From positions 18,328,805 to 18,392,804 of the forward strand of contig OZ316894.1 in assembly GCA_973895155.1 (NCBI GenBank): a stretch of 64,000 nucleotides of DNA. Reading direction: 5' to 3'. This document shows positions 39,290 to 64,000 of this stretch, one piece after another. A program made the position numbers and the translations under genes. The notes beneath the pieces are model-generated. The model was given only the letters and a program-made list of their open reading frames with translations. It had not been told where the DNA came from and made no database searches. How positions within the stretch are numbered: position 1 is the first letter of the stretch; each line of letters opens with the position of its first letter. The DNA is from Marsupella aquatica. Taxonomy: Eukaryota > Plantae > Marchantiophyta.

Positions 39290-39720
39290 CAAACATCATC
39301 TTTCACACAATATAGTCTTTGCACAATGACATATTCTCTACAAGAAAAATCTTTCACAAAACATCTTTTCAGCAATGACATTGTTTACACAAGGATGTAC
39401 TTTGTTCAATTTTAATTTTTTGGCAAACAATATTGCTTTTGCATTGACATCTTTTTTTTAACAACATATTTTCAACAATGAAATCATTTATAGAACAACA
39501 TTTTTGGAACAATTTACTTTCCACAAATGACAGATTTTGCCCAACGACATCTTTTCCGTAAATAACAGATTTTTTGCAACGTTATCTTTTTCGCAAATGA
39601 CACTTTTTGAGCAAATGACATCTTTTCTGCATATAACATCTTTTCCGCAACGACATCTTTTTTGCATACGATATGTTTTACACATTGACAATTTTTGCGC
39701 AACAATATCTTTTGTGCAAC
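39290..39720. repeat. Degenerate ~18-20-bp tandem array (gacatctttt..gcaa), TE subterminal-type
   Basis: More than 15 variants of acatctttt/ttttgcaa; source of the Cys/Lys-rich spurious ORFs. Confidence 0.75.
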
Positions 39721-40953
39721 GCACAGGTATTGAGCTAGTTTATAATAATGACACAAATGAACATTACATTTTATCTCATTGCGGACTGAAACAGAGTTGA
39801 GTTGTTGACGATGATGATGGAAAAGGACATGATTGATCGGGAGACAAAAATGGAGGCAAAGGTGTAATGAAGTGGGAACCCTGAAGTTTAAACCCATTTA
39901 CACTGGAGGGGAATTTTTACCGACCATTATAGAGGGACTCAGATGTTTGGCTGGGATCTTTATCCAAATGTATCCACCTTGATGGGTTCCCATACCATAG
40001 TCGGCATTAGGTTCGCCGTGAAAATAATTAAATCCAGAAAATTGGACGGCCAGCGCACAAATTCGTGACTGCATACGCGTCAGGCCGGGAAATTATTTTT
40101 TACAGTCCGTGAAACAGTTCAATCTTTTTTTTACCAGTCCCGTTTCACCCACTTTTACTGGGAATTATTAAAATGTGGGACTCATTCGGCCCGGGTACTC
40201 TTGGACATTTTTTCCCGTCATTGAAACACGCGACATGAAATTTCGCACCATTTACGATCGCGATGTGCAAGGTAATTCACGGAGCACACATTCATGGCTC
40301 ACAGGAAGACATTCATGATTCACATGCCCACATGTAGACAAATCCAATGTTCATGGAGAATGCAGGAGTGTTATTCAGATGTTGAAAGCCAAATCATCCA
40401 CAAGCGGATGGAGGCCTACTTCATTGACAAATTCAATGAATCGTGGAAGATTCAATCTGAACAAAATTTGACAAAATCACAAAATTGAGTGTGGACACAC
40501 TTAAAGAAGAGCATACAGGCAAAACGCCCTTAAGTGCCTTCGAGCTTCTATCGATAAAGTTACTACGGCTCATCAACTACACTATAAACTACTTGGAATA
40601 CTCTAATCTCTCTAAACTACTTAGAACGCTGCGGTCGTTTGGCAAGCGTACGTTTTGGTTCGCGGGGCTCGTCCATAGCGCCGTCTAATACTCGCCCGAG
40701 CTTCTTCAAGCATCGCAGCCTCCTCCCGTTGTAAATCTTGGGGGGGGTTAACTTAGTGTATATTTTGGGGTACCACGTGCGATCCTAGCCTAATATAATC
40801 ACACCTATTTTATAATGGGAATATTCCAAAAATATTCTCTCTTTTCAATATTAATGACCTATTTTACTTTATAAAAGGTATATATAAGAGAATATTCTAC
40901 AAATATGAGTTTATAATACCTTCTTTTGCTTCCTACGCTTTTTAAAAATTTAG

Positions 40954-41598
40954 CTAATTTATACGAAAAACACCTATTTTGGATCGCACGTGGTTCTTAA
41001 GATTTTTAATAGTCAACCCCCCGAGTTGTAAACTCATGTCAAAGTTTGTCAAAGCATTGTCGACGACGCGACAAACATGTGTGCCAACTTCATCTTGTAC
41101 AGCAGCGTTGGCGCGAGGTGATTCCGCATTGTCGGGAGGAGGCGTTGCCTCCCTTCGCGATTGGTTGGGCGGACGGTTATCTGAAGTGAAATGCTTCGGA
41201 TCCAAGTCGTATTGGTCCTGTGGAATGGATGAAAGTTGGAAGAAAATGTCGGCAGGAACCTGCACTGCAATTGCATACACATTCACTCCAACACATTTGA
41301 ACAGAAGCTCCTTGCCAAAGCAAGTCCTAAAAGCCTCCTTTGATGCGTTGGTCCAATTGCTAACATTGGTGCAATAGAGTGTTTGATAATGCATACGTTG
41401 GGGTCCATGAGCTGGACTTGAAGGATCCTCGGGCTTGGGCGAGAAGAGTGACTCGCACAACATTGTATCATAGTTCACAGGACATGGCAGCAAGCAAGAA
41501 TGGTTGTAGTCCACCGGTGTCAAGCTTGAATCCGCGTTCGACATGGAGCTCCTTACACAAGTCCCACACAATGAATCAAAAACAATCCCCAAATCCAC
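40954..41598 (-). CDS. Accessory ORF/exon of unknown function inside the pogo element
   Basis: 214-codon open frame inside the TIRs, same strand as the transposase; candidate splice donor at 40973 and AG/GT-bounded segments at about 41820-41866 and 42083-42175. Confidence 0.4.
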   Translation of the reverse strand: MDLGIVFDSLCGTCVRSSMSNADSSLTPVDYNHSCLLPCPVNYDTMLCESLFSPKPEDPSSPAHGPQRMHYQTLYCTNVSNWTNASKEAFRTCFGKELLFKCVGVNVYAIAVQVPADIFFQLSSIPQDQYDLDPKHFTSDNRPPNQSRREATPPPDNAESPRANAAVQDEVGTHVCRVVDNALTNFDMSLQLGGLTIKNLKNHVRSKIGVFRIN

Positions 41599-42263
41599 AC
41601 AAAAGGAGCTACGGCGCCAGAGCGAAGTCGATTAGGCACAATGCAAGACACCAGAATGAGTTAGTCCTACCAAGCAAGCCAAACTTTATCCCGAATCCAG
41701 TAAAATCGACCCATTGTGTCTTCAGTGCCGATTACGCTCCTCACACTTCGTCATTAAGACATTTCGAGACGACACAAGCAAAGTTTGTACTGGCCAAAGT
41801 AAATCAAGAATGTATGTACCTCCAAGTGGGTGGAGATGTTGACGTCTAACGTCCAATTTCGCTCCCTGCAAGTGTACTTGATTGGCACTTGTGGGATTCA
41901 AACCCAGACTATTAGCCTCAACTCCAATTAGTCATTCATTGAGCACATACAAGGAGAAAAAAACCTCCGAAATCCTTCAGTTAATCTTGCATTCCAAAAT
42001 GTCTCCTTGCGGACGAACTACAGGACTACAGAATACAAACGGCAAGTGCTAATCTGTAACTAACTACCGCAAACAATTTAACCCAAGCCTCCTGACCATC
42101 CCCAAACAAAATTGTGCCGTCTAGATTGGCATCACAATCCAAGCTGCAAGAGCTTGAGCCCTTTCTCTCAGGTGTCTGCATATGAAGTTGTAGCATAGGG
42201 ATCCGTAAGGTATGTTTGAAAGTCTATAGGACCACTATTAACGACCTATGTGAAATCAAACAA

Positions 42264-44132
42264 TCAATCATCCGAGATGTCACCGATCATCGCTAACTCG
42301 TTCAAATCCGGTAAGCGTGTACCACCACCACAACTCTCAACAACTTGGTTCAAATCCAAGTCTCCATCCCACTCCTGCATGAGTAGAGCTCCAGGACACG
42401 GTTTTGGCTCCAAAGAGGTGTCTCCTCTGGCAGTCCAATTGTTAAACAACTGGCCTCCCTCCTGAACACTGAAAGCTTCCTCCTGAAACTCTGCAGTCCA
42501 AGCTCGCAACAAGCCACACTTGGTCCATCCTTTCAACAACATATCATTCAAAGCAAAAATATCTGTAAATGCTTTGTACAAAAATTCCACTGCTTCCACT
42601 CGCAATGTGCATATTGCCAAGTCCAATCTGGATGACTGAGGGATGATCCCAGATGAGAATTGATTTGCTATCATCCTGGTGGCCCACACATGGTATTGCT
42701 TTTGAAAAGCGGCCTTCAAAGGCCTCTGAACAATCACGTCACATGGCTGGAATTTCGAAGTAGTTCCAGCTGGGACAAATAGCAAAGAAATGCAAGGGTG
42801 ATTAGTGGTCAAGAAAGCTTTGAAGTCTGCCAATCTGTGCACACTCCAACAGTCAATCAACAGTACCATTTTCTGCTTGCCCACCACTCGGCCTTGCTCC
42901 CTACACACCTTCACATACCAGGGGCGCAAAATCTCATCTACCCAATCCTTGGAAGTCTTCAAGTTGCTCCAATGATTCTGAGATTGTGTCAGCATCCATC
43001 CCAAGTGCCTCACGAGGATAGAAGTTGTGCAACTTGGCACAACATTCTTTGTTTTGCCCTCAAAAATCAGCTGCATTGGCAACATATGTCCACTTGCTGT
43101 TACTGCCAGAACACAGGTGATGGACCGCTTGTCATCCCTTCTTGTCACAGAAATCTCTTGTGCTCCTCTCATTGAGTACGTCCTCTCCCCTGCACATGGT
43201 ACTAGCGAAATGCCTGTTTGATCCATGTTCACAACCAACTCAGGTGGGATGTTATGTGCCTTCACTAGGTACGCTAACCTCAAAGCTAGAGTATTTCCTT
43301 GCTCCTTCCAGTCTAAAGGAAGCTTTGATGCATTGGTAGTACTAGCTCTAAATGTCCAATTCATGACCTTACGCAAGTACCTTGTCACATATGTTCGGCT
43401 GCAAGCAAAAGGACCTCCATTCTCAAGCAATACTTCGGGTGCCTTGGACATGAGAAACCCCTTCAGCAGAATCTGGGTTGTGATAGAATTCACAACTTGT
43501 CCTTTCTCGCGTTGATGCCTTAGGAGAGCCCACCACTCATCCTCCAACTCCTCCCTTCCCCTCCAAAGACTCACTCAATGTCCAAGTTGAATTGAACGAT
43601 CGTTGGTGGGTGCCCCACTTGCGTGAATTGCATAAATAGCAAGCCTCGTGTTGGTTTTGAATGTCCTCCCGTCAACTAAAAACCATCCTCTCAAGGTGGA
43701 CTCATTCAACCTGTCAAACAGACCAGGCCCTGTTGTAGTCGAAGGATGTCTTCGACGTAGGTGATGAATCGTGGCTGCTGGACTATACTTATAGTGCTTC
43801 AAAGCATTGTCAATGTGCGGCCAACACTCGAAGGTAAACCAATTGGTGTACCTTGCAGCTCTCCCCCTTTTTCGGCATGATGAATTAGCTGAGGATTCGC
43901 TGGAGTCCCCCACAAGACTTCCCTGTGTGGGCTCCATGTCTTCTGGAGCAGGCAACACAGTTGCCTTTCGAGGCCTGCCAACTCGTCTCTTTGTCAACTC
44001 TTGCGCAGCAACAAGCTCGGCTTGTAGAACTTTCGACCGCAACGCTGTCTCGGCCAATGTCGCTGCCTCTCTCTCCATCCTTGACATGTACTCGTCCGAT
44101 GAAATGAATGGAAAACCGAGAGAAGAAGCCAT
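42264..44132 (-). pseudogene. pogo-family DDE_1 transposase (DD37D) interrupted by a single in-frame TGA at 43575-43577
   Basis: ORFs 43575-44159 and 42264-43574 are adjacent and in the same frame. Motifs: AT-hook KRRVGRPRK, HTH-like LNESTLRGWF, CENP-B-like region, and catalytic NMDQTG, LLIDCWSVH and FQPCDV, with 37 residues between the second and third Asp. Confidence 0.9.
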
Positions 44133-44794
44133 CAGAACTTGGAGTCTTCGTTGTCGCACCCCTCCGGGTCAATGATTGATGGTGGTTGGGGCACATCTTC
44201 AGAAAGAGGTGGATCCACACTCAGCCTCCCCCAATCAGACGAGTGCTCGTAATGCTCAGGCTCAACAACGAGTCGCTCCACCTGAAGAGGGGGTACAAGT
44301 TCTGTACTGCAAGAATGTTGGCCTAGATCGACGTCAATTCTCTCCGGGCTTGGATACAACTCAGTTCTCTAATAGGTCCTCTGTTGATAGGGCCCGCTTG
44401 CAAAATCAATGAGAAATTGATGGAAGGCCCTCTCAGAATCCTCACTGATCTCGTCTGGAACACTACACTCAGTCTCAGAGGAAGAGATCTCTAGAATTTC
44501 AGTCTCGATCGCCTGAGAGAGAACTTGATTACTTCCGTGGCTTCTCGAGTGCACTTCAGACGGGCCACCGACCTTTCAATTGGGCCCGTTCTGCTTCAAG
44601 CACTGGGCAGAGGGTGAGAGCTTGGGCCTCAAGCAATTGCACCTCTTGCGCTTCTCCCGAATGGCAAAGTCTAATCCAATATGGGACCGACTGACTAATT
44701 TGCATATACACCAAAATTGTGCCCAATCGGGATTCTCCCTCTCAAATAGACAATCGGGGCATGTACAGGAACCAAGAATATTGGATGCAGACAT
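44132..44794 (-). pseudogene. Upstream Cys-rich/acidic ORF of the pogo element, ~220 codons with two in-frame stops
   Basis: Track ORFs 44576-44854, 44369-44554 and 44132-44359 share one frame. MSASNILGSCTCPDCLFE..WCICK..KRKRCNC is followed by an acidic tail; its stop overlaps the transposase ATG (TGATG, 44130-44134). Confidence 0.55.
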
Positions 44795-46514
44795 CAAACA
44801 ACCAGTGGAGAGGTAGTAGAAAAGGCTGAAGCTGTCGTGACATACAACGAACACTAGATAGAGAGGGCAGAAGCTCTAAAGTTCCAATTACAACATGACC
44901 AGCAGTATGCAATGCTTGGGGAATTGAGCACCCACTTCGAGCAATTTCTATGTTTAGAATGCGTGATAGATATCGAGAAGGTAAGTCACCACAATCACTA
45001 CTTATACAAAGCCGGCCATCACAAATCCATGCAAGGTTTGAGGCAGCACTTACTCCCGCTTCTTTTCCTCGCCATCTTGCAGCCCTTCCCTCCATAGCTG
45101 CTAATTCAATTACAAATCCCCTCACGCTTGCATTCAATCAGAATTCGGCACTCAATCAGTGAACAGCTGTCAACATTCACATATGCGAAAGAGAGCTTGC
45201 ACTTCAAGAATGTGAAAGAAATACAAGTTCAGTAACTACCTACGTTTCAATTCATGCGGATGCACTTACCTTGTCCAATATGAACGCTGTTTCCTCAGAT
45301 GCCTGTAACGTATAACAAGAAAGATTGTACACTACAATGTACCTAGAAAGAAGAGAGTAATGGAGCTACGAATCAAACATGCAAGCACTTATGGGACTTC
45401 AAATTGTAAGCGGCACACTAAAGGGCTGGATACAGTCGTAAACACATGATTCTATGATTCTATGAAGGTCTTCAACTCCTGCCTCAGCTCCAAATTCAAC
45501 CGATTCACATCGACGATCAAAATGAGCAGCCCTGACAATCGCGAACCTTCCATTCGGCAACAATCTCACTCCCGCCGCTCGCGAAATCTCCAAACAAACC
45601 CTATCAACGCGCCAAACCACGAAAGCTCCAAGGAATCCATCGCTGCCGCGAACACAACATTCATCGGTCCCTCTACCGTGAACACGAAGAGAAACCTAGA
45701 TGGCGCCGCGAACAAAGGGTTTAGGGCAGGCAAACGTGAAAACACTGATATATCGATACTAGGATCATCGACGGCTGGGAAAAAATCGCCCATAGGATCG
45801 CGGCAGGTGGAAACGCCTGAAAAATAATGTTTCGCGGTCGGTGACAGCGAACCTAATGACGACTACGGTAATCTTCTTTGCATGATAGGAAAGATCTTTA
45901 ACTCTAAATCCATTTGTACACGAAAGACTTACAGTAATTAGAATACATGTTCATGTAGATCTCATTGAAGCTTAACAATCCTATCCTAGCAAAGGATTTG
46001 GATTCGAAACATGTGTGAGTAGAATATTTTAATTTAGAAAGGAATTCTGTTACTGGAAAAAGAGGGCAGAAATAAATTATATACAGAAAATTGTAAAAAA
46101 GCCAAGAGTCCAACAAAGGGGCCCAGAGCCCTTTTCCACGTACAGCTGTGCCCATATTAGCAGGGGCGCTACGTGTCTCAACGAGAGTAGCAGAAAATCT
46201 TTCCCCGTTTTGGGGATCAGCTGCACTTTTGGGTGCAAAGTCGATCAGGGTTTCCGCCTGGCTTTATGTGTCTTACTCAGAACATCAAAGGTAGGACCCA
46301 TTCTTGAACGTTGGGTTACGCCTTAAAAATTTACGCTGCCATACCAACGTCCGTGAAAAGCCCCCAAAACAACCTTGCACCTAGGGCCCAACCAAATCTA
46401 AGCACTTTATCTAGCTATGGAATCTAATCTGAACATCTGAACAGTATGCAATCTACTGTAGCTCTTTCCTTTTCATGGTTTATGAAATGAAATATAATGA
46501 AATGTCATTATGGA

Positions 46515-47291
46515 GGGAATTCCTGGTGGTCTATTGATGGTAATGACAGTTTTCGCTAACTATGGGATGGGATAGACCATAAAGTGCCACTCTGTGCTGT
46601 CTCCATGCCCAACCCATCAAAGGAATTTTTTTGCTTTCCTCAGAACATTTTGGATTCATTTTAGTAACTTAGATCCATCAGGTTTTGCATCGTGAGGTTA
46701 TAAGAGTACTTAATATCAACAAGTGTGCAATGCACAGGCATTGGGCTAGACCAAGAGTAAACATTGGCAAAGGTCTTGCAATGCAGTACACCATATATGA
46801 ATTCGTGGATTAGTGGGGCAGTTCATGTAGTCCTCTAATATTACACATTTTTCCTTTGTGAATATACCCCAAAATTGCAGTTTTACAGTTGCAGCTTGAC
46901 ACTCACTAAAAGACACGTACTGCGTTTCAGTGTATAAGTGCATACATGCATTTATCCATTATTGTAGCACACACAGAAGAAACATTGATTGGAAAGTACC
47001 TCCTATATCGCAATAAAGTAAATTTATGCACTTATCCAGTGAATCCTGCGATAAGATGCCTTGGTAGGAGTAGTGTGTGACTTGACACAGCATTTGGAGA
47101 AGTGCATAAATGATTTATTCTGCACTTATTATCACACACTTTAGTGTTAGGGACATCACCCCATGCAACTGCACAATGCAATTGTTAAGCATCTTCCTTG
47201 TATTGAGTCTGCAAATACTTTGTCCACTATGAAAAATTTATATTACCATCCATACAAGATATTACCATCCATAGACCACCAGGTGTATCCC
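46515..47291. mobile_element. MITE-like element with ~30-bp TIRs
   Basis: gggaattcctggtggtctattgatggtaat ... attaccatccatagaccaccaggtgtatccc; internal and adjacent ataagtgcata/tgcacttat motifs, also seen at 63959-63985. No clear TSD. Confidence 0.6.
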
Positions 47292-48628
47292 AACATTACC
47301 GTAGTGCATACCTTGGATAAGTGCATAAATCATTTATAGAGCACTTGCCACATAGTACATACCGTGCATAAGTGCAGCACTTAGGTACGGTAGACTATAC
47401 CACGCCTATGGCAGTATCGTCAATCTGGGCGGTACCCCCGGTTTCCCCAGGCCGACACCGTACTTTGTATTGAAGGACCCGGATCGCGTGCGAGGTCCTG
47501 GACGCATACTATCGACGACCACGATCCACGATGACGTCGCCTCCTCTCACGATGACCTTCGGATCAACTCGATCCGGGGGGCCTTTACGCCGGTCCTGAT
47601 CACCGAAGCTGCCGTAAATAAGGTACGCACTTCCCAGTCCAGATGGCCGACGGAAAACGAGAAGGACGGAAGTGGTCGGGATGTTCCGAAGATGGACGGA
47701 AAAAGGAGGTCCTGTACTTCGAACGGATTATGCCGAACTTTATGAAACGAACGCCGACGACGAATTTCTCTTTCTTTAATTCTCTCATTCACATGTCTGA
47801 TTCTGAGCCAAAAGAAGATTGCGTTGCTTTTCAGGATCCTGCTGAATTGTGCTTTCTTCATTCTGTCCTCTGTACGAAAAGAAGCGGCGAAAATTTTGCC
47901 GAGAGTAAGATTGCGTTGCTTTTCGGCATGTCGTCGAAGTGTTAATCGGTCCTGTGCTTTGGCTGATGAGGATTGTGTTTTGTGTGAGTTTGGATTTCGG
48001 AAGGAACTCGGAACATGACGATTTCTCGCACCGCATATGTACAGAAGATTTGAGGACGGAGGAGCTGGTGAGGCTTTTTGACTTCGGCGGAGTAGTTTGA
48101 AGAACAGAGGAGGAGAAGTTAGCGAAGAAAGAAGATGTGCTGCTTGAGCGAGCGATGAAAAGTTCGTGCTGCCAGTGTCTGAAGAGCTTAGGAGCATTGG
48201 GAGATTGGAAAATGAGAAGCTTGATTGATTGATTGATCGCGATGTCAAGATCTTACGACTGGCGGAATGTTTGGACCTGTAGCTTGTGCTGTTATTTGTG
48301 GTATGGGGGTGGATGGCATGAATGAATGACTTTTAATGAATCCGAAGGTAAAATCTGAGTTTGCTCGCTCGCTCGCTCGTTAGCTGCTCTCTGGCTGGCT
48401 GGCAGCGACTTGCTTCCATATCAGGCGGCTGCAAAAAATGATGCCTTGTGAGCATCTGGTGTGAACAGAGAGATATGCGCTTGGTCTGCAACATCAGAAA
48501 AACGTGGAGAGTACAGGCAGGCGCAGGAAGGAAAGAGTTGCATACAATCTTTTGTGACATCCTCCCTCTCCGGAAGAGAAGGGGAGATCCGGACGCGTGC
48601 ATCCTCTGCAAGTCTGCAATATGCCCCC

Positions 48629-49774
48629 ATGCCTCGCAGTCTCCACTCACCTCAGAGCGGACCTGGGAGCCCTGGTATGGAAGGTGCGAGTTCTGCAAGG
48701 CGAAGGGAGCGAAACGATGATGGGGTAGGGAGGAATAGACAGTCGCTGACAGTTCCAATTTGCAAAGATTTTGTTCGAGGACGATGCTCGCGACCGCACG
48801 TGGATTGCCGATTTGCCAATCCTCCTCGCAGTGTTTGCCTCGAAGGGTCAGATTACATTCTTTTCCACTTGTCTTCTTCGTGAAATTTAGAATGTCCTCG
48901 CGATTCATGCGTAAGGGCATTGTGGACGATACTCGAAATTGATCAGCCTCTTCTAAATGTCCATAAGGAGTCTCTTGAGGTCTCCAATTCGCGCCATGTT
49001 ACCTGGTGCTATGGCTCGATGAAGGTAATTTGTCCTTCCTCGTGGTTGTTGTGGTTATCGTAAGAACAAGGGTTTGACCCTGTCTTTTCGCTTCTCAGGT
49101 TGTTAACATGTCCATAGATCTTGTTCCAGGGCTGATAAATTCAGGAGTGTGCGAGTTTTATGGCTGCTTTTCTCGTTCTTTTGTAGTTTCGACCAGCAGT
49201 CAATTCGATTGTCCTGGGTACTGCCTGAGCTATGGTGAAGTTTTCTCGATTGGAATAAATTCTATTTCTAGCTAAATTGGAGTTGAAGGATCCAGACGAG
49301 AGCTTTGCACTTTCCTTTCACAATATTTCTTGTTCTCCGAGCAAGTTTTACCGTCCATGGACAAGAACTCAACCTCAAGTAGTCAGTCGTTTAGAATTGG
49401 ATAATGTCTACATCTCGTGAAATTTTGCGGGAGCTGGCTTGAATGAGTGTCGTCGCGTCATTTTTGCCTACTTTCAAATTCTGTTGATTGGCTTTAAGAT
49501 TCAGAGTCAGGCCTTACTGATGTTTTGAAATGAGAAGCTCGAATCAGTCCGGTTTTAAAGACGACCGTGGACTGCTTCACGTCGAGGTGTCCGGTCCTTC
49601 AAATTAGACATTATTCATCCCTGTACTACAATAGTCGATGCAGAAGCTGAGCGTGCAACCTCAACAAATCAATTAGCCCGACAACTTCTCCCTATTGTAC
49701 AGCAGGAGGGCAACTCAACGCAAGCTCTTGAACAGTTCAACGCAGCCAGCTCCCAGCCCTTCTTGCCCTTCTGA
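48629..49774 (+). pseudogene. Muscleblind-type tandem CCCH zinc-finger gene, apparently degenerate
   Basis: SLTVPICKDFVRGRCSRPHVDCRFANPP..EG (donor at 48847), then HVTWCYGSMK|gt (48995-49024) and a decayed RGVRSFKLDIIHP (about 49580-49620), follow the MBNL pattern LEVCREFQRGxCSR..CKFAHP..VxACFDSLKGRCxR..CKYLHP. The Zn-ligand His is Asn and no in-phase AG precedes the second piece. Confidence 0.55.
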
Positions 49775-60987: not shown

Positions 60988-61997
60988 CCTTTCCATGACA
61001 TCCTAGCCCCTCGTTCAAACCTGGCCCTAGCTTTTCTTCTTGCAAGAGTTAAGTGCACCTTGCATATCTTGCATCATGAAGAGCTAGTCCCATTGGTGTG
61101 CTTGGACACTAGAAGGAATCATCCAAAATATTTGGACATGGGCAAATAGATTACATAGGGCATTTGGTTCTAAGATTCGTTTTACTGACATTTGATGCGT
61201 TGAGAAGACTGCAATATGGAGTGATGGGAAGGACTAGATGGGAGTCACCTAGAAGGATCCACCTGAATGTCTTTTAGAGTGGATTCTTTGAGGACCATCA
61301 CATTCAAGATGGCCCTTAGGTGATGCCATTTGATGGTCCGTGGTTAAGATGAGTGGTACTTTCTCTCTGGATAGGTTTTGCTTATCACTCCTCAACTTTA
61401 GGTGCTCTTTATGAGCTTACCTTCTATCTTATCTTCCCACAATACTTCTTGGCCTTATGCTAGTTCTCTTAACGGTTTAAAACACTGATTCTTTAATTTG
61501 CTACTTCGCTTATTTTCCAAAATGGGTTTCACTTTCCTGTCCCCCAAACTAGTCAAAATTGCTAACTTGACCCCAAAACTAATTTAATTATCAAGTTGCC
61601 CCCCATTTTGTAAGTGGGTTGGCTTATCCAGACTAGGCTAACCAGAGATGGCACATAATGGTCTGGAGGCCCCGCTGGAGGCCTACAATTCGTCCAAGCT
61701 AACTCCCTCCTACTGTAACAGTGACGGAAATGAGGGGGATCAAAATTAATGCATTAGTTTTGCTCAAAGATAGTAGTCAGCAACTGTGTTCCGGTGAGTG
61801 TTGGATGGAGAAATCTGGTCAAGGGTGTGAAGGTTGGAAGAGTTAGCATGGGTACACTGCAAGCCTCCATATGTCCATGAACTGATTGCTTGTCATGTTA
61901 AGCCAATATATACAAAACTAGCCCCATGCCCGTGCCCCATGCCTGTGCGTTGCCCCATGCCAATTTATACAAAACTAGCCCCATCCCATGCGTTGCA

Positions 61998-62530
61998 CAA
62001 AAGATGTTGAGGAGAAAAATGATGTTGAAGTGAACAAAAGATGTTGAGGTGATAAAAGATTTTGAGGAGAGAAAAGATGTTAAACCACAATTTGTAATAC
62101 TCATACTCCGGGTGACCCGGAGTACTCACTCAAGAAACCCGACATTCACGAGTGCGGATAGGCGCCCATCAATAGCCCTCCAATCAACCTTCACCATAAT
62201 CTCATCCGCCCATGAAACTCAGTGATCTGCAGCTCATTTTGAAGATCTCATTGAGATCTACGTCCCAGAAAAATTCGCACTAGAAAATGATGCAAATGAA
62301 GGAGAAAATACTGAAAAACAAATGGGGGCTTCTGATTGGTTGGGCAGGTAAGGGTTGTGGTCATTTTCTCATTTCAACATTTTTCTCTCCTCACATTATT
62401 TCTCTCCACTATATCTTTTGCTCACCTTGACATCTTTTCTCTCCTCAACCTTTAATTTCTATCACCTCAACATCTTTTTTCTCTCTTTGACATCTTTTAT
62501 CACCTCAACATCTTTTGCTCACCTTAAACC
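61998..62530. repeat. Inverted pair of short-unit arrays (foldback-like)
   Basis: aaagatgttgaggag/tga units at 61998-62081 face their reverse complement (acatctttt.ctc.cctca) at 62370-62525. Confidence 0.7.
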
Positions 62531-64000
62531 ACAACTCCTGGTATTTAAGGGCCCTGCCGTGCAACCGGGGTCCTTTAATTCTGTACTCTGCTGCCCAAGC
62601 CCACCTACCGCTGCTGCCCGAGCCCACCCTCCCGCAACGCTCCGAGCCTCACCTTCCTGACATGCGACATTTGCTCGTGATTGTATGCTAGTCCTGGGCT
62701 CCCTCTCTTGTGCTTATCCTGTGAAGGACTCGAAGATGTCACAAACAGATTTAATTTTTGCACAAATGTTTAGGAATTGCATCCTGCCAGTTGTGTTGTC
62801 CCTTCATCCTCAATGGCGGATGCTTCAAAGCTGTCGTCCTCCATGGCGAATGCATCAAGGTTGTCGTCCTCCCGTCTGCCTCCATGTCCAGTGCTCAATA
62901 GGTAAGGAGAAATTGTAGCATAAAGCCTGCAGCTTGATGCAGGTTCTCACCATGTCTCCGTTCCACTTTCTTGATGTCTGAAGTTTGTGTAATTGAAGTG
63001 ACCAAGGTCCCATCTATCTTGTAGCTGTCCAAAGTTGTGGTGTTTTTGTGAAGGGCGATCTGCAATCTAGACTCCAAGGTGATCAGCCGCTGACAATTCT
63101 TCAAGCTATTTCTCTTGCGTGGTTGCTTTGTGTCGATGCATCGTTGCTTTTATGACGTTCTATCATTCAGGAGTGGGATGATATATAAGGAGAGTCTGTG
63201 AGCTACGCTGTGAGAAGGCAAAGTGAGGAATTTGAGATTGTCAATTTTCCCATGGTCTCTCGGGTGGGTTTGACAGGAGAGCAGAGGAAACAAGAGGAGA
63301 TTTCTCTTTTTTGGTTATATACACCATGATATGGGGATGAAGCTCTTAGAGTTATCTCCCACACAACTCGTGAAATCAAGACTTCATTACATCCAAGATG
63401 CCTCTGGTACTTGACTAGAGGAGAAGAAGCCGTTACTTGAGAGCCTAGAGGCAAGGATTGATGACGGCGCGGCGATCCTCACAACTCATATAGATTCCTA
63501 TTTCACCGCAATTCAAAGCCACTGTACAACGATGGCTTCCTTTTCTTACATCTCTCGTGAGAAAATCTGTCATACTATGATTTGTTTTTTTCTGAGATGT
63601 CTCTTGAGAAACCCATGACAGTACGATTCGTTACTTTTCTTAGGTACCTTGAGAGATATAAGGAAAGTCTCCCGATGCAGGTTCTCATCATGAGACAAGA
63701 CTTTTGTTAGATCTCTCCTGAGAAATCAGAGCAAAATTATCTCTTTGTAGCCCAAATTGGTTATCATCCAGTCCAAGCCAATGGTGCCAGCTTATGCCAA
63801 GAGCAATGCTGTGAGATTGAGGTTTTCCTTCAGATTTATCATTGTCCAATTCTACCAACATTCGCAGCCATTTGTAATGCCTTCTTGGCTATGGCCGCCG
63901 ACCTTGGAGTAGTAGTCGTGCTCATCGTGCGGACTCTTTTGAGTACTCCTGCTCAATCTATAAGTGCATAAATGCATTTATCCCTTGTTGTAACATAACT

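Follow-up and report, generated by a model that had tools for sequence, protein, structure and literature searches.

The window, which is the whole stretch of 64,000 nucleotides analysed here, contains a cut-and-paste transposon of the pogo-like DD37D kind in a decayed state. On its minus strand, a cysteine-rich reading frame (ORF1) ends in a TGATG pentamer in which the transposase frame begins, and ORF1 itself is depleted of ATG. We tentatively propose a virus-style bicistron, in which a regulator of a new eight-cysteine family would be made from a deliberately weak start alongside a transposase that is reached by leakage through the ATG-purged ORF down to the UGAUG. Translation of both proteins from one mRNA through leaky scanning is our best reading of the sequence, held with some reserve.

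Apart from those of ciliates, pogo and Tc1/mariner elements are usually described as transposase-only. The present element brings an uncharacterised protein family together with a strong signature, at sequence level, of translational coupling. If the proposal is true, a DNA transposon would have a new means of limiting its transposase dose, a land plant would offer a natural case of a bicistron read by leaky scanning, regulator and transposase would stand in a fixed ratio in an early lineage of land plants, and the small cysteine-rich protein would be a candidate regulator of transposition or silencing.

Structure of the element and its transposase

The element was delimited by inverted-repeat detection and end alignment and spans 5874 nt (39995–45868, minus strand). 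Its 5′ terminal inverted repeat of 25 nt (45844–45868, minus strand) matches the 3′ repeat (39995–40019, plus strand) at 22 of 25 positions, and both element ends are flanked by TA target-site duplications (45869–45870 and 39993–39994). A TA duplication combined with terminal inverted repeats is a feature of the IS630-Tc1-mariner group. The window holds one copy. Many diverged siblings are present as contigs in four sequencing runs (X1 to X4), and when these contigs are placed on the window the sibling depth is down to flank level past about position 45990.

The transposase frame (42168–44132, minus strand, 654 codons) was assigned by Pfam and by alignment of the catalytic triad. DDE_1 (PF03184) was the best match with an E value of 9e-13, and DDE_3 stayed below the Pfam cut-off. 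The triad D304-D427-D465 gives DD37D, the spacing of the maT / DD37D family of Tc1/mariner, a spacing that does not by itself confer maT membership. The same spacing was measured in 57 of 61 measurable cores among 65 examined. Codons 186, 623 and 629 of the transposase are stops in the window copy and break the frame; codon 629 reads CAG in all depth of the four runs, and codons 186 and 623 are absent among the sibling variants listed. No Pfam helix-turn-helix was found in the window copy. HTH_Tnp_Tc5 (PF03221) was matched by one of 19 aligned relatives, and the relative P0023 carries the source name ‘HTH CENPB-type’. The nearest named transposases are those of Riccia sorocarpa (38–40%) and Klebsormidium (35%). 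In a midpoint-rooted FastTree of 65 sequences from this lineage only, P0002 and the Riccia sequence P0003 fall together with the window copy at a support of 0.98. Both results make a non-seed land plant the likely host.

Downstream of the transposase, a third frame on the same strand (ORF3, 40623–41544, start at 41544) is a candidate coding frame of about 208 codons when an insert is left out, and may make this a three-gene element. A sequence search with ORF3 gave no match among its seven candidates, the ESM Atlas gave no usable match, and a comparison with 80 metagenome loci reached a best E value of 0.12. The insert that cuts the frame (40728–41024, no strand assigned) has a length of 297 nt and an 8-nt direct repeat, and its high copy number was recognised from run depth. 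It is missing from the sibling contigs in X1 and X2. The insert is MITE-like with G-rich/C-rich ends and exceeds the host element in depth by a factor of hundreds.

ORF1 and the TGATG junction

ORF1 (44132–44794, minus strand, 220 codons) was delimited from its translation, the sibling contigs and database relatives. The earlier note had described a CxCxxC..CxC..KRKRCxC motif followed by an acidic tail, and both are present in the translation. An N-terminal domain with eight cysteines (C10, 12, 15, 29, 31, 52, 54 and 65) and a basic patch is followed by the acidic tail. The length of about 220 codons given in the same note applies to the family rather than to the window copy, in which TGA at codon 73 (44576–44578, minus strand) and TAG at codon 142 (44369–44371, minus strand) interrupt the frame and leave a piece of 78 codons reaching the junction. 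In most of the sibling depth these codons encode arginine and glutamine, respectively. Position 44578 is C in 68/78 (X1), 254/279 (X3) and 637/824 (X4) of the depth, position 44371 is C in 70/102 (X1), 334/334 (X3) and 747/847 (X4), and changes at the third positions of both codons still encode Arg and Gln. Since both stops are mostly sense codons in the siblings, the family has an ORF1 frame that runs uninterrupted through 220 codons.

Sibling variants were collected between 44070 and 44620 in three runs, and 40 of the 69 are listed. Among the listed changes elsewhere in ORF1, 15 of 35 are synonymous, compared with 9.0 expected (p=0.016). Three sibling pieces align without gaps at 83–85% identity over 160–247 nt. 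As evidence to the contrary, net indels not divisible by three were found in the acidic tail of six of 24 listed sibling pieces (records 1, 10, 11, 13, 18 and 19, some of which are one copy in two runs). ORF1 reads as a real, coding accessory gene of the element. The earlier note had named lack of conservation of the upstream frame as grounds for dropping its proposal; the sense codons in siblings and the database relatives indicate that the frame is conserved.

An exhaustive search with ORF1 yielded seven matches, of which six are genuine relatives (E values of 4e-17 to 7e-5), all on Logan contigs of 1.0–1.7 kb. The seventh, P0052, was dropped as a repetitive, spurious match. Judged by eye, one of the six, P0048 (209 aa, 43% identical over residues 9–103), has the full set of eight cysteines and P0050 (192 aa) has seven of them, so that conservation of the cysteine motif in related sequences, which the earlier note had proposed to check, holds in full in the first and nearly so in the second. 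At the position of KRKR, the putative NLS-like patch of the earlier note, the relatives have REKR, RAKR or REKQ. Other searches returned little. A word-indexed search found nothing at an E value of 0.1 among 56 candidates, the best E value against the 80 metagenome loci was 2.5, and no meaningful Pfam match was obtained for the ORF1 pieces (best E value 0.046) or for five relatives. The ESM Atlas gave no usable match for residues 20–110 of P0048, and solved structures searched by sequence gave no match. No relatives were found in viral contigs, searched with the transposase and with the ORF1 relatives, or in prokaryote genomes. An AlphaFold model of P0048 made with six sequences had a mean pLDDT of 39 and was unusable. 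It is a guess, and rather a doubtful one, that the ORF1 protein, with its acidic tail, might be a nuclear regulator that binds zinc and aids expression or transposition of the element.

At the junction, the minus strand from 44140 to 44127 reads AAG TTC TGA TG GCT. The TGATG pentamer (44130–44134, minus strand, context ctgATGgc) leads from ORF1 into the transposase in the -1 frame. The stop-start overlap reported in the earlier note is real: the TGA of ORF1 (44134–44132) and the first ATG of the transposase (44132–44130, MASSLG) have their A in common. TGATG by itself is not rare, and a second one is found at the start of ORF1 (44796–44792), where it closes only a 19-codon frame. The pentamer is kept in records 2 and 3 of X1 and record 17 of X4, all of which extend just 7 nt beyond it and whose differences are all accounted for elsewhere. 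In X3, at a share of 20%, all places with A>G (seven), A>T (two), T>C (eight) and T>G (two) are listed and none lies in 44130–44134, while changes at the two C positions of the pentamer (plus strand) may sit beyond those listed. Decay of the junction TGA from CGA was considered and rejected: none of the seven A>G places in X3 or the five in X1 is 44134, and in X4 five of the six A>G places are listed. At 44140, a loose end of an X4 sibling can be read as 12 nt inserted in frame, four codons ahead of the stop of ORF1. A splice acceptor at 44138 was also rejected, the sequence there being a purine-rich AAG that is absent from the candidate acceptors.

The earlier note had considered that the junction could be a 1-nt indel or that the two frames could form one fusion protein. 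The complete list of indels in the siblings has four rows, all located away from the junction, which speaks against an indel there as the origin of the overlap. Fusion through a -1 frameshift, through a small intron or through an indel particular to the window copy would draw on the transposase frame being open for 12 codons before its ATG in this copy. Siblings, however, carry a TGA (44150; 243/344 in X3) or a TAG (44153; 161/344) six to seven codons before the ATG, and a slippery heptamer is as absent as the junction indel. Moreover, the relatives P0005, P0007, P0008, P0015 and P0023 start at the matching position, and the seven matches of the ORF1 search, which had no length limit, include no fused protein, the sole long one being repetitive and spurious. 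The frameshift fusion is therefore unsupported, and fusion as a whole is largely refuted and very improbable.

Conservation of the junction, another point the earlier note had raised, was found within the family but not in distant relatives. The stop-start overlap is present in none of 35 located transposase starts of distant relatives, which represent about five subfamilies and come from 80 metagenome loci at 27–43% identity. Where the ends of these distant relatives could be located, 350–430 nt separate the transposase start from the inverted repeat upstream of it, which is too little space for ORF1. Record 25 of X4 (86% identity) stops at the ATG, with a TGA placed 7 nt before it and no overlap, a reading that rests on 30 letters of unknown frame in a loose end. 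It suggests, weakly, that subfamilies may differ in whether stop and start overlap exactly.

These observations bear on the notion that ORF1 is a passenger, with a transcript of its own or no longer useful, and that the overlap is accidental packing. The lack of the overlap in all 35 distant starts, the chance TGATG at the start of ORF1 and the frame-breaking indels in some siblings would agree with it, but it explains neither the excess of synonymous changes nor the purge of ATG described below, and we regard it as quite improbable.

Depletion of ATG and routes to the transposase start

Past its own start, ORF1 contains three ATGs in 659 nt compared with 12.5 ± 2.5 expected, and none of 5000 dinucleotide shuffles was as low. 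Among 384 tiles of 660 nt across the window, none has three or fewer ATGs (median 12). As controls, the transposase has 39 ATGs against 41 expected and ORF3 has 14 against 10; the difference in count between ORF1 and the transposase is significant (Fisher p=0.004). ORF1 has no internal methionine, for which p=0.006 at the methionine rate of the transposase. When ORF1 was recoded synonymously, the number of out-of-frame ATGs was mildly low (3 vs 6.3, p=0.055). The ATG test is post hoc, as it was conceived after the sequence had been seen.

The depletion is strongest close to the transposase. The 570 nt from 44702 to 44133 (minus strand) contain one ATG, at 44196, which is ACG in most of the depth of X3 and X4, and the part from 44702 to 44286 has none against 5.9 expected. 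The two further inner ATGs of ORF1 (44762 and 44705) are out of frame. One listed sibling change, at 44326, would create a single out-of-frame ATG (44328). Among the relatives, internal methionines are lacking in the full-length P0048 as well as in P0051 and P0053; after the likely start there are three in P0050/P0056, one in P0049 and three in P0055.

The start of ORF1 (tttgATGt) has T at both -3 and +4, the inner ATGs at 44762 and 44705 have T at -3 and C at +4, and the transposase start has G at +4. The ORF1 start thus appears weak and the transposase start better, as graded by a consensus context that may not be that of the host. ATG purge and weak ORF1 start together are the mark of a scanned leader. 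They point to scanning and would not be foreseen from pure stop-start reinitiation.

The leader between the 5′ end and ORF1 has 19 ATGs and no depletion, a number that would require introns or a downstream start, both of which are predictions. A predicted leader intron (44855–45269, minus strand), with the donor AAG/gtaagt at 45269 and a pyrimidine-rich acceptor ending near 44854, would take out nine of the 19. A possible leader exon of 33 nt (45270–45302, minus strand) was noticed by eye, bounded by an acceptor-like ttacag on one side and by the 45269 donor on the other.

In the preferred reading, leaky scanning, the predicted introns of the leader would be removed and scanning ribosomes would then reach the weak AUG of ORF1 first. 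Some would initiate there. Others would bypass it as well as the weak out-of-frame AUGs at 44762 and 44705, traverse about 570 AUG-free bases and initiate at the transposase AUG. Transposase would thereby be kept low and tied to the dose of ORF1. The overlap would pack the two frames as closely as is possible while ORF1 still stops before running over the transposase frame, and some reinitiation may come on top.

A second possibility is that two mRNAs are made from one promoter or two, one containing the ORF1 AUG and the other spliced to a candidate acceptor within ORF1 (44603, 44513 or 44282) or started inside ORF1. The transposase mRNA would then be monocistronic, with the tail of ORF1 as its 5′ leader devoid of AUG. 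Both inner ATGs (44762 and 44705) lie upstream of the good-looking acceptor at 44603 and siblings are mostly without ATG downstream of it, a distribution that fits splicing as well or better. The strong donor at 45269 could be joined to about 44854 for ORF1 or to 44603 for the transposase. Against this, two mRNAs predict neither the exact overlap nor the weak start of ORF1, the whole purge would be accounted for only by the acceptor nearest the 5′ end, given the ATG-free part from 44702 to 44286, and the residues encoded across the 44603 site are, by eye, not the same in distant relatives. We consider this arrangement unlikely, while acknowledging that it is the most serious competitor and that sequence alone cannot separate leaky scanning from alternative splicing. 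Slightly more weight was given to the weakness of the ORF1 start and to how closely the two frames adjoin, so that leaky scanning is slightly preferred.

The earlier note had raised termination-reinitiation, in which ribosomes end at the UGA, step one base back and restart at the AUG. This accounts for the exact pentamer overlap, which is kept in siblings, and the 130 nt past the AUG fold marginally better than shuffled sequences (z -1.76, 12/200). ORF1, however, lacks TGGGA, which we take to be a TURBS-like motif, and the structure upstream of the stop is not unusual (z +1.45). Nor does the route explain the purge of ATG, and the TGA of X4 record 25, placed 7 nt before the ATG in its 30 letters of unknown frame, does not suit it. 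Reinitiation depends on the first start in the opposite way to leaky scanning, in the available part of the algal study (PMC11291117), and it would predict a strong ORF1 start where a weak one is observed. As the main route it is improbable. Of the bicistronic regulator-transposase unit that the earlier note had proposed, the accessory gene stands, its co-expression alongside the transposase being likely, while stop-start reinitiation as its main mechanism is weakened.

Known systems, distant relatives and neighbouring sequence

The closest parallel for leaky scanning comes from green algae. In the passages available from PMC11291117, the first ORF of bicistrons read by leaky scanning is short and weakly started, ATG is depleted before the second ORF, and the stop and start overlap at some loci. 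Depletion before the second frame and a weak first with a better second start are likewise found here, the start contexts being graded by the consensus mentioned above. The algal cases are host genes with long-read and mutational proof (PMC11291117), whereas the present one is a mobile element known from sequence.

Pentamer overlap of stop and start after a long ORF is shared with SART1 and the calicivirus TURBS system (PMC10275272, in part). Those are a retrotransposon and a virus; the UAAUG coupling of SART1 requires downstream structure, an RNA element of the needed kind is not evident here, and an ATG purge is no part of the mechanism in the available text (PMC10275272). In the bacterial IS91, the stop of the accessory orf121 overlaps the start of tnpA and its product regulates transposition, according to the portion of PMC13181058 available. 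IS91 differs in its HUH transposase and bacterial translation, and the comparison is an analogy only.

With the pogo superfamily the element shares the TA duplication, short inverted ends and a DDE_1 domain with a DDD triad, as set out in the available parts of PMC7386202 and PMC7325037. DD37D marks no pogo family there, though it falls within the Lemi and pogoR ranges. The same passages give pogo elements 1.2–5.2 kb and one or two ORFs, in contrast to 5.9 kb and three same-strand ORFs here, and mention no accessory Cys-rich gene of the kind present in this element. Ciliate TBE/Tec elements belong to the Tc1/mariner group and have three ORFs, with a zinc-finger protein in TBE (PMC7325037, available sections). 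They differ by DD34E and by ends of about 80 bp or 700 bp, compared with DD37D and 25-nt ends here; those sections describe no stop-start coupling, and ORF1 has no Pfam match. Membership in TBE/Tec was rejected, as neither DD34E nor long or telomere-tipped ends were found. Plant DNA transposons with a helper gene of their own are known from Vandal MULEs, with their VANC and Kaonashi/Ulp1 accessory genes (PMC13317346, in part). These belong to the Mutator superfamily, and the likeness drawn here is that of carrying a helper gene. A second likeness is that distant members of the present lineage have an upstream Ulp1-type ORF inside their ends. In the literature covered, to which most subscription papers and Repbase did not belong, we found no report of such a layout in a eukaryotic DNA transposon.

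One clade of the transposase tree has a different upstream gene of about 380–440 codons inside the element ends. All three of its upstream ORFs tested matched the Ulp1 Peptidase_C48 family in Pfam. ORFs of this type precede the transposase at L055:3089-4288, L057:2610-3929, L058:2550-3686, L059:723-1859, L060:2321-3460, L062:524-1654, L063:315-1448 and L072:2723-3886, with a fragment in L064. TA-flanked ends enclosing the Ulp1-type ORF were found for L055, L058, L059, L062 and L072, and in L058, L059 and L062 the next ORF follows 22–33 nt past its stop. The C48 protease is described as an accessory domain in a passage of PMC5751038 that does not name the superfamily. The hosts of these elements are, as a guess, fungal. 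Since this clade has an upstream gene of a different type, upstream cargo appears to have arisen more than once in the lineage. None of seven Ulp1-type ORFs is poor in ATG, so that the purge is particular to ORF1 and leaky scanning across the whole lineage was rejected. In a further subfamily (L067:6397-7143, L069, L074 and L075:6113-6760), a long acidic C-terminal extension or an ORF lies downstream of the transposase core; no convincing Pfam match was obtained for it.

Other repeats occur in the window outside the element. Just outside its 5′ end, a pair of 23-nt inverted repeats (96%) 716 nt apart (46522–47283) is possibly another small element, and a related stretch is found at 63943–63995. 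A low-complexity repeat family with units like AAAAGATGTT and very high run depth occupies 39370–39740 and 61990–62530. On the plus strand, a frame at 48452–48883 contains a zinc-finger-like motif, presumably of the CCCH family, and is likely an exon of a host gene.
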